Source: Escherichia coli (GTDB taxonomy: Bacteria > Pseudomonadota > Gammaproteobacteria > Enterobacterales > Enterobacteriaceae). From it: a stretch of 64,000 nt of DNA. Location: the NCBI RefSeq assembly GCF_029227855.1, contig NZ_CP074356.1; one strand, written 5' to 3'. The translations under genes and the position numbers were made by a program. The notes below the pieces were generated by a model. The model saw nothing but the letters and a program-made list of their open reading frames with translations. It was not told the origin of the DNA and searched no databases. Of the stretch, positions 54,264 to 55,369 are shown piece by piece; the stretch's first letter is position 1, and every line of letters starts with the position of its first letter.

Positions 54264-54707
54264 AGCAACCTCCGTGAAAATGAATAATAATCCGCACATA
54301 TTGCATGTACAACATGTCGGGCGGATGAGATAAGCGAGTCGACATCTGGCGTTACCGGGGAATATCAAAAAAATGTCATGGTTATGTGATGATTTAGTCT
54401 GGGATTTTACTTCAGAGAAACGGGTGTCTGTTTAGTCAACAAAATAATCACAAACGCAACGGATGGGTTCTCGACGTTATTCACGACAGGCTCGTACATT
54501 ACAGCGAGTAATAAAAACCTGATATGCAAAGTCAAACCAATATTCATAATGTCTTTTTATTCACAACAATAAATAATTCAATAACAATCATTGAAATGAA
54601 TGATGGTTTGTATAAGGAATATACGCTACCGCCCCACCCTGATAACATGATCTGCACATTGCCATCTTAACGTCGTTAAACACTGGCTTAATAGTGGATA
54701 TTTAAAA

Positions 54708-54902
54708 TTAGGAATTTATTAAATTCACCTGATGAATATCATAAGCAAATAGCATAGAAAATAATGACAACTCCCCCGAGGGGACCATTTCCAAAGCACT
54801 GCACCACCACCTGGTGCCCGGATGATCTTGCTTCAGTGGTAAGAGTACCTGATTCATTGTTCCCAAAATGGTGTTTTCCCGGGCCCCTCCAATAATGTGC
54901 AA
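54708..54902 (-). CDS. Small hypothetical ORF in the AT-rich leader upstream of vgrG (may correspond to yncH; not verified)
   Basis: 64-codon ORF only; no motif support. Confidence 0.2.
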   Translation of the reverse strand: MHIIGGARENTILGTMNQVLLPLKQDHPGTRWWCSALEMVPSGELSLFSMLFAYDIHQVNLINS

Positions 54903-55369
54903 CTCTCACGTGATAATCTATTGATTAGGTTATATTAAGAATCAATATTTGAAATACATCCATTTTCTTGAATAAATCAACATGTTTATTTATCAATTGC
55001 TGTTTTAGCTCTGACTCATCAAGCTCTCCATATTTGTCCTACAGATAATCGCGAATAAATACAGAGAACGCCATTTATCCTTTTAGCATACCTGCCGGAT
55101 ATTTTTATTTGTATTAATATTAATTGCATCTCCAACTCCGGGCATATCCATCATTAAAAACATTTTGAGATTATAGAATGCCTGTGATAACAACTGAAAC
55201 ATCTGCACAATGTGAATAGTTAGTTTCTTTTCAGAGGAAATGAAATAGACAAGCTGAATGAAAGGGAGAGTGATATAAATTAAAAAAATAACATGAATCT
55301 AATTAATTACGTCCATCATTGTGGATAAAGTTACTGAATAATAAATAACATAATCTTCTGGTATCCCAC

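Follow-up and report, generated by a model that had tools for sequence, protein, structure and literature searches.

The AT-rich yncG-vgrG intergenic region of Escherichia coli is composite and probably includes an H-NS-bound leader that silences vgrG-rhs

The intergenic region between yncG and vgrG on an Escherichia coli chromosome is probably a composite one, situated at the yncG-proximal edge of an accessory vgrG-rhsE island, in which an H-NS-bound leader silences the vgrG-rhs genes. [quoted passage not shown] A 2026 EHEC study (PMC13141884) presents the laboratory silence of such islands as an unsolved practical problem. The region described here is a natural place to seek the cause of this silence. 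The AT-rich spacer, yncH and the binding of H-NS are already known from databases or the literature; one point that we have not seen described, and a modest lead, is a core that recurs in the leaders upstream of several orphan vgrG/PAAR islands.

Results

The interval at positions 54264-55369 is the exact intergenic gap between yncG and vgrG in the window, i.e. the whole 64-kb stretch of E. coli chromosome that was analysed. As yncG, yncH and vgrG are all on the minus strand, the upstream border is the yncG stop codon (55370-55372) and the downstream border is the vgrG ATG (54263-54261). The glutathione S-transferase family gene yncG (55370..55987, minus strand) was recognised from its ORF, Pfam GST domains and PGAP annotation, with ansP, yncE and pqqU to its right in the window. 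The vgrG-rhs island opens with vgrG (52155..54263, minus strand), which encodes a T6SS spike protein with the Pfam domains Phage_GPD, Phage_base_V and Gp5_trimer_C and is likewise annotated by PGAP; the next gene after vgrG is an RHS core gene (47929-52088) that is frameshifted in this strain. The first-pass annotation had described an AT-rich gap of ~1.1 kb between yncG and vgrG, and this description was borne out by a length of 1106 bp and a GC content of 35.6% as compared to 50.3% for the window. This value lies at the 5th percentile among the 1106-bp windows of the 64 kb, making the interval the fourth most AT-rich patch on the kilobase scale. The same annotation had treated the gap as a single non-coding leader of vgrG. 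That view had to be revised, as the interval holds the annotated ORF yncH, a patch of normal GC content and a possible terminator, and only the proximal ~480 bp behave as a vgrG leader.

The small ORF yncH (55083-55298, minus strand; K-12 b1455), annotated by RefSeq/PGAP and assigned to DUF5445 (Pfam PF17520), is separated from yncG by a spacer of 29.6% GC (55299..55369) and is followed by a further AT-rich spacer of 30.3% GC (54905..55082). RefSeq/PGAP annotates yncH in JNEC-KY178, a 100% identical genome, as well as in thousands of further genomes, and the region is matched at 95-99% identity by E. coli chromosomes that likewise number in the thousands. A 1-nt deletion at 55287, just past the usual ATG of yncH (55294), puts this ATG out of frame in the window, so that the yncH frame of this strain does not begin with a canonical start codon. 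As a consequence of the deletion, PGAP falls back to an ATT start and the ORF lister gives only a 41-codon remainder, which is why yncH was overlooked in the first-pass annotation.

The coding status of yncH was assessed from its relatives and its pattern of variation. The yncH of the window matches PF17520 with E = 6e-40. A database of 5.8 billion proteins contained 158 relatives, carrying Escherichia or Shigella labels wherever named, and the best 120 of these 158 were at least 86% identical with annotated lengths of 62 to 100 amino acids. As the family is limited to Escherichia/Shigella, the DUF5445 match is circular. Variable sites among nine strains were distributed over codon positions 1/2/3 as 0/6/5 in yncH, the corresponding counts being 17/4/31 in yncG and 10/5/48 in vgrG. 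The share of second-position sites was 6/11 in yncH versus 4/52 in yncG (Fisher p = 0.001), and the pooled pN/pS was 0.49, from just 11 variable sites, versus 0.16 in yncG; this number of sites is too small for neutrality to be rejected. Downstream of codon 5, the yncH ORF stays open in all nine strains. Direct reading of the sequence revealed no Shine-Dalgarno ahead of either of the two candidate starts of yncH, and the product has the F-, I-, L-, N- and K-rich composition that would come from translating AT-rich DNA. The case for yncH is weak, and it appears to be a doubtful protein gene, which may still encode a small protein under weak constraint.

AT-richness is uneven within the interval due to a GC-normal patch of 51.8% GC (54764..54904), which is single-copy and unannotated and was found in 3571 of 5426 complete E. 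coli genomes. This patch holds most of a 64-codon ORF (54708-54902, minus strand). The first-pass annotation had listed this ORF as the one weak ORF of the gap; it is the longest mechanically called ORF lying wholly inside the interval, but it is broken by a 1-nt indel in six of nine strains and yncH had been missed. Searches for relatives of the ORF or the patch outside this locus gave none, the only matches being E. coli sequences from the same locus. Judged from these sequence comparisons, the 64-codon ORF is not a gene. A gene remnant was also considered for the ORF and the patch and was rejected on the same two grounds (i.e. same-locus matches only and the frameshift in six of nine strains), whilst a dispersed repeat was rejected because the patch is single-copy. 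No convincing terminal inverted or direct repeats were found that would mark the segment of yncH plus GC-normal patch as a mobile insertion, and folding of the patch was no better than that of shuffles on either strand (z = +0.72 and -0.57).

A motif scan detected a terminator-like hairpin, UCCCC-UCG-GGGGA, with an interrupted U-rich tail at 54760..54784 on the minus strand (hairpin 54784-54772). The hairpin has a 5-bp stem and a 3-nt loop, and this one site compares to an expectation of 1.1 +/- 1.2 in shuffles. Homology to paralogous vgrG leaders starts immediately downstream of the hairpin. The hairpin sits precisely where the vgrG-linked module begins, a location that is no more than suggestive; it may close the yncG/yncH transcription unit and thereby shield the vgrG leader from it.

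Variability of the island was examined by searching positions 53600-56400 against the 5426 complete E. coli genomes, which fell into three classes. Genomes of the first class keep the whole arrangement. In the second class, homology ends at 55372, i.e. at the yncG stop codon, and one of these genomes has a different island, PAAR-tssI-M35. In the third class, comprising B2/ST131-type genomes, yncG is gone too and a remnant of ~100 bp lies between an ISEc1 transposase gene and ansP. As homology ends at the yncG stop codon in some genomes, the entire interval is on the accessory island side, and these alignments place the yncG-vgrG interval within a variable, horizontally exchanged island. Several alternative cargos or remnants occupy the yncG locus in different genomes, which marks it as a hotspot. 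K-12 is ~98% identical to the window from yncG to ~54331, a point 68 bp upstream of the vgrG start. A deletion at ~54331 fuses the K-12 leader, at position -67 or so, to an internal part of rhsE near its middle; lost from K-12 are the final 67 bp of leader sequence, all of vgrG and the 5' portion of rhsE.

The proximal 474 bp of the leader (54265-54738) have a paralog of ~80% identity (79-81% depending on the strain) located between cusS and another vgrG. This paralog was present in 2368 of 5426 genomes, with nearly all copies at least 99% identical to each other. The cusS-locus orphan vgrG island is presumably the vgrG1-rhsF island of EHEC, an assumption made from gene neighbours and EDL933 locus numbering. 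As homology of the leaders starts right after the hairpin, the distal 620 bp (i.e. yncH and the GC-normal patch) are peculiar to the yncG locus, and the vgrG leader proper is confined to the proximal ~480 bp. These ~480 bp (54264-54740) travel with vgrG, and diverged copies precede other orphan vgrG/PAAR islands.

Identity to the cusS-locus paralog varies along the leader. The first 64 coding nucleotides of vgrG are 92% identical and positions -1 to -30, which include the RBS, 87%; the vgrG Shine-Dalgarno, GGAGG, is at 54269-54273 (minus strand). Identity falls to 55% between -31 and -77, is 70-83% between -78 and -352, rises to 90-93% between -353 and -437 and is 85% between -438 and -477. 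The latter two segments form a conserved core of ~120 bp (54616..54740, minus strand; -353 to -477 from the ATG) with 85-93% identity to the paralog, which contains GTGAATTTAATAAATTCC ... GTGCAGATCATGTTATCAGGGTGGGGCGGTAGCGTAT. The remaining vgrG-proximal leader (54264..54615, minus strand) probably represents a long 5' UTR or contains further promoters. No small ORF of the leader is in the same frame in the cusS-locus paralog. The core is recognisable in five different locus configurations, including the B2 remnant and Escherichia sp. E1V33, and a 37-nt piece of it with six mismatches is found upstream of the PAAR-tssI-M35 island. A search of species-representative genomes (16.6 million contigs) for the core outside Escherichia produced two motif matches, both Escherichia-like. 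The consensus fold of five core variants reached -3.7 kcal/mol, with no compensatory pairs and no covariation.

Nucleotide diversity was compared across the 2.8-kb neighbourhood in nine E. coli strains. The vgrG-proximal leader (54265-54615) was the lowest-diversity segment of this neighbourhood, with a pi of 0.4% and six segregating sites in 351 bp. Corresponding values of pi were 0.9% for the yncG-ansP promoter region (3.3% segregating sites), 1.2% for the conserved core (54616-54740), 1.9% for the GC-normal patch, 2.2% for yncH, 3.2% for yncG (8.4% segregating sites) and 4.9% for the 5' end of vgrG. The low diversity of the leader fits functional constraint, and could alternatively result from a recent recombinational sweep.

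The first-pass annotation had suggested consulting H-NS ChIP data for the homologous region, and published binding data are available for that of K-12. The K-12 spacer, which is ~98% identical, is bound by H-NS in both ChIP-seq and gSELEX. The gSELEX data place an H-NS site and an RpoD-holoenzyme site in the yncH>rhsE spacer (Shimada 2014, PMC3946193, Table 3), with the RpoD holoenzyme alone binding this spacer in vitro (PMC3946193). A weak PhoB ChIP-seq peak (score 1) was reported at NC_000913.3:1527862 for the site TATCAGAAAAATGTCATG (Fitzgerald 2023, PMC10294691, Table 1) and corresponds to window position ~54371, which precedes the vgrG start by about 110 bp. In the window, this PhoB-box-like site reads TATCAAAAAAATGTCATG (54363-54380). 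The peak is flagged as H-NS-bound on the basis of the ChIP-seq of Kahramanoglou 2011, as relayed in PMC10294691. Sites in H-NS-bound DNA were judged to be mostly transcriptionally inert by Fitzgerald 2023 (PMC10294691). In K-12 TraDIS, yncH and ydcD were low-insertion genes (PMC5821084), which would fit coating of this DNA by H-NS, a connection made by us and not by that study. Separately, a weak K-12 FlhDC gSELEX peak maps to ~55023, just after yncH, following conversion of the U00096.2 coordinates by +1976.

Occupancy of the spacer by H-NS is supported by these data through the ~98%-identical K-12 DNA. The first-pass annotation had regarded the gap as a typical H-NS regulatory region; its AT-richness, its variable island setting and the K-12 occupancy agree with this view, but the high-affinity motif is not enriched beyond composition. 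Four matches to the high-affinity H-NS motif TCGATAAATT (at most two mismatches) were present in the interval as compared to 2.65 +/- 1.6 in composition-matched shuffles, and 82 of 300 shuffles reached four. Such a motif aids H-NS binding, without being required for it. From the H-NS occupancy, the base composition and what is seen at other T6SS loci, we infer that H-NS silences vgrG-rhs; the anti-silencing signal proposed in the first-pass annotation is likewise hypothetical.

A consensus promoter scan returned three promoter-like sites versus 5.8 +/- 3.0 in shuffles, i.e. fewer than expected by chance. One site, TTATCA-N16-TATATT (54645-54618, minus strand), is inside the conserved core and another, TGTACA-N16-TATTAT (54311-54284, minus strand), is proximal to the ATG. 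A sigma-70 promoter predicted by Shimada, TTGACT-N16-TATTAC (54536-54508, minus strand), has an N17 spacer in K-12. The spacing of Shimada's promoter and of the ATG-proximal site is lost in the cusS-locus paralog through 7- and 8-nt deletions; the site in the core keeps its spacing in this paralog, but E1V33 does not preserve the -10 element of this site. Given the chance-level matches and the poorly kept spacing or -10 elements, the vgrG promoters stay candidates only. Every candidate promoter except the ATG-proximal one leaves a leader of more than 240 nt.

Other regulatory elements were sought in and around the interval. The sole match within two mismatches of a sigma-54 -24/-12 element (TGGCAC-N5-TTGC) in the interval is without the GG and overlaps the RBS, leaving no credible sigma-54 promoter. 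An RpoN gSELEX peak named 'yncH > ydcD' (1527534) was considered as a leader site and was rejected, as its coordinate refers to U00096.2, is 1976 bp off version 3 and sits inside rhsE near ydcD. A 'promoter island' paper was likewise set aside as evidence for the spacer, since it concerns ydcD/yncI instead. An Rfam scan of positions 53500-56500 (E<=1) gave no match, ARAGORN found no tRNA and the fold of the putative 5' UTR did not differ significantly from shuffles (z = -1.64). Fur, CRP and CsrA sites were sought by eye and gave poor matches.

Discussion

The reading that we favour can be set out as a sequence of steps. Downstream of the yncG stop codon, yncH and AT-rich filler would be followed by the GC-normal patch with its weak hairpin and then by the ~480-bp AT-rich vgrG leader. 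The hairpin probably closes the yncG/yncH transcription unit, whilst the leader would carry the vgrG promoter(s) and a long untranslated leader. H-NS would spread across the AT-rich tract and either occlude or trap RNA polymerase at the leader promoters, and the vgrG-rhs operon would thereby be kept off in laboratory conditions. Expression would require displacement of H-NS by an anti-silencer, possibly combined with a post-transcriptional step.

Such a post-transcriptional step could be the main function of the proximal leader, with a 5' UTR of ~250-350 nt limiting translation or stability of the vgrG mRNA and, as a consequence, no VgrG protein being made upon removal of H-NS alone. We consider this explanation unlikely. 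It draws on the long leaders (>240 nt) left by all candidate promoters bar the ATG-proximal one and on the 87% conservation of the RBS-proximal 30 nt between the paralogs. The EHEC gene vgrG1 is taken to be the cusS-locus gene on the basis of gene neighbours and EDL933 locus numbering. In PMC13141884, a promoter swap at vgrG1 yielded no protein, and the hcp3-vgrG3 spacer, which is non-homologous, represses translation of vgrG3. The leader RNA, however, folds no better than shuffles, matches no Rfam family and has no small ORF in a conserved frame between the paralogs; furthermore, the core is devoid of covariation or a stable consensus structure, and the best-conserved part of the leader (-353 to -477) lies upstream of or at the candidate promoters and not near the RBS.

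Two further explanations assign the AT-rich DNA a different status. The region could be AT-rich debris from successive insertions and deletions of islands, to which H-NS binds incidentally and with no effect on vgrG, transcription of vgrG coming from a short proximal promoter or from read-through. The relaxed constraint on yncH and its frameshift in this strain, the decay of the 64-codon ORF, the alternative cargos and remnants of this hotspot and the chance-level promoter and terminator matches would all be expected of debris, as would the transcriptional inertness of many sites in H-NS-bound DNA (Fitzgerald 2023, PMC10294691). This explanation is quite improbable, as no part of the neighbourhood varies less than the proximal leader, the ~120-bp core has persisted in five configurations that otherwise diverge and the spacer is a target of RNA polymerase holoenzyme in vitro. 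Comparably improbable is that yncH is a genuine small protein gene, which would make the distal interval coding and not regulatory. Annotation in RefSeq genomes and K-12 (b1455), the strong match to Pfam DUF5445, a pN/pS below 1 and an ORF open past codon 5 in all nine strains speak for a gene, but the Pfam match is circular for a family confined to Escherichia/Shigella, the annotated N-termini vary (62 to 100 amino acids), the window has the canonical start in the wrong frame, neither candidate start has a Shine-Dalgarno, second-position changes are in excess relative to yncG (Fisher p = 0.001) and the F/I/L/N/K-rich composition is expected from translated AT-rich DNA.

Within the favoured reading of an H-NS-silenced vgrG leader, the ~120-bp core may have a more specific role. 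We tentatively raise the possibility, without expecting it to be the likelier case, that the core is a dedicated Escherichia-specific cis-regulatory module, i.e. an operator or promoter through which a regulator would couple scattered orphan vgrG/PAAR islands (at the yncG locus, the cusS locus and others) to a common signal. A shared module of this kind would account for survival of the core in five diverged configurations and for a leader that is less variable than the flanking genes. The corrected map of the region distinguishes a yncH part, a possible terminator, ~480 bp that belong to vgrG and a short conserved core for use in reporter or pull-down work.

The T6SS of EHEC provides the closest functional comparisons. 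H-NS represses the main EHEC T6SS cluster, according to PMC13141884 and PMC7216683, and deletion of hns raises T6SS mRNA but alone is insufficient for protein expression (Wan 2017 as cited in PMC7216683; PMC13141884). The EHEC T6SS island and the present region both have AT-rich regulatory DNA beside horizontally acquired T6SS genes; the EHEC H-NS data refer to the bidirectional promoter of the main cluster, whereas the present region belongs to an orphan vgrG-rhs island. The EHEC element h3R, the spacer between hcp3 and vgrG3, contains a terminator and a promoter along with a 5' UTR of repressive effect, and it represses vgrG3 translation, as described in PMC13141884. Its layout is analogous to that proposed here, with a terminator after the upstream gene, a promoter and a vgrG 5' UTR affecting VgrG output, but h3R is 209 bp in length as compared to 1106 bp for the present region. 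Comparison with the hcp-vgrG spacer of Sakai aligned ~11 nt before the ATG plus the coding sequence, and nothing more.

The promoter swap at EHEC vgrG1 produced neither VgrG1 nor RhsF protein, leading its authors to suspect a post-transcriptional block (PMC13141884). The cusS-locus leader is genuinely paralogous to the proximal ~480 bp (~80% identity overall and 85-93% in the core), but is at another chromosomal locus, has a different distal part without yncH or the GC-normal patch and differs by indels of 4-11 nt within the spacers of the candidate promoters. The K-12 yncH-rhsE spacer has the same yncH, GC-normal patch, conserved core and PhoB-box-like site as the window. The window differs from K-12 by the 1-nt deletion in yncH, by a spacer that is one T shorter in the promoter predicted by Shimada and by a C-to-T change in the PhoB-box-like site; and whereas the K-12 spacer is without vgrG or an intact operon, the window has an intact vgrG.

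Conserved core of the vgrG leader

The leader of vgrG (approximately 480 bp, window positions 54264-54740) contains a core of ~120 bp that is more strongly conserved than the remainder. In the window, this core lies at 54616-54740 on the minus strand and reads GTGAATTTAATAAATTCC ... GTGCAGATCATGTTATCAGGGTGGGGCGGTAGCGTAT, with a GATC inside. Leaders from three different orphan T6SS islands have the core in common, and it is also present in a remnant from B2 strains and in a cryptic-clade Escherichia; outside the window, it lies at 7994-8125, 5754-5870, 6001-6100 and 5871-5987 of the compared sequences L004, L005, L006 and L009, respectively. 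Neither an RNA structure nor an ORF was found within the core.

Surrounding genes and comparison with K-12

Three other kb-scale patches of the window exceed the yncG-vgrG gap (54264-55369) in AT-richness, with GC contents of 31.8-33.2%. Two of these are found at 22019-23124 and 23714-24819, and the third (46904-48009) spans the rhs tip/immunity region and reaches into an ISAs1 gene. ISAs1/H-repeat transposase genes (45732-47211) separate the two RHS core genes downstream of vgrG (47929-52088 and 41101-45311). The annotation of the identical JNEC-KY178 genome lists both RHS genes as pseudogenes with frameshifts, so the effector part of the vgrG-rhs 'operon' may be non-functional in this strain.

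Within the gap, a 1-nt deletion at 55287, unique to the window among nine strains compared, places the ATG of yncH out of frame, and PGAP rescues this gene via an ATT start. The low insertion levels of yncH and ydcD in K-12 (PMC5821084) could reflect H-NS occlusion instead of essentiality. A PhoB-box-like sequence, TATCAAAAAAATGTCATG, occurs at 54363-54380 on the plus strand, opposite to vgrG, and carries a single plus-strand substitution, G to A, relative to its K-12 counterpart; the K-12 sequence is a weak PhoB ChIP-seq site without a measured regulatory effect (PMC10294691). The K-12 rhsE 'pseudogene' is the product of a single deletion (window ~54331; NC_000913.3 ~1527890), which fused mid-rhsE to the vgrG leader 67 bp upstream of the ATG and removed vgrG entirely from K-12.
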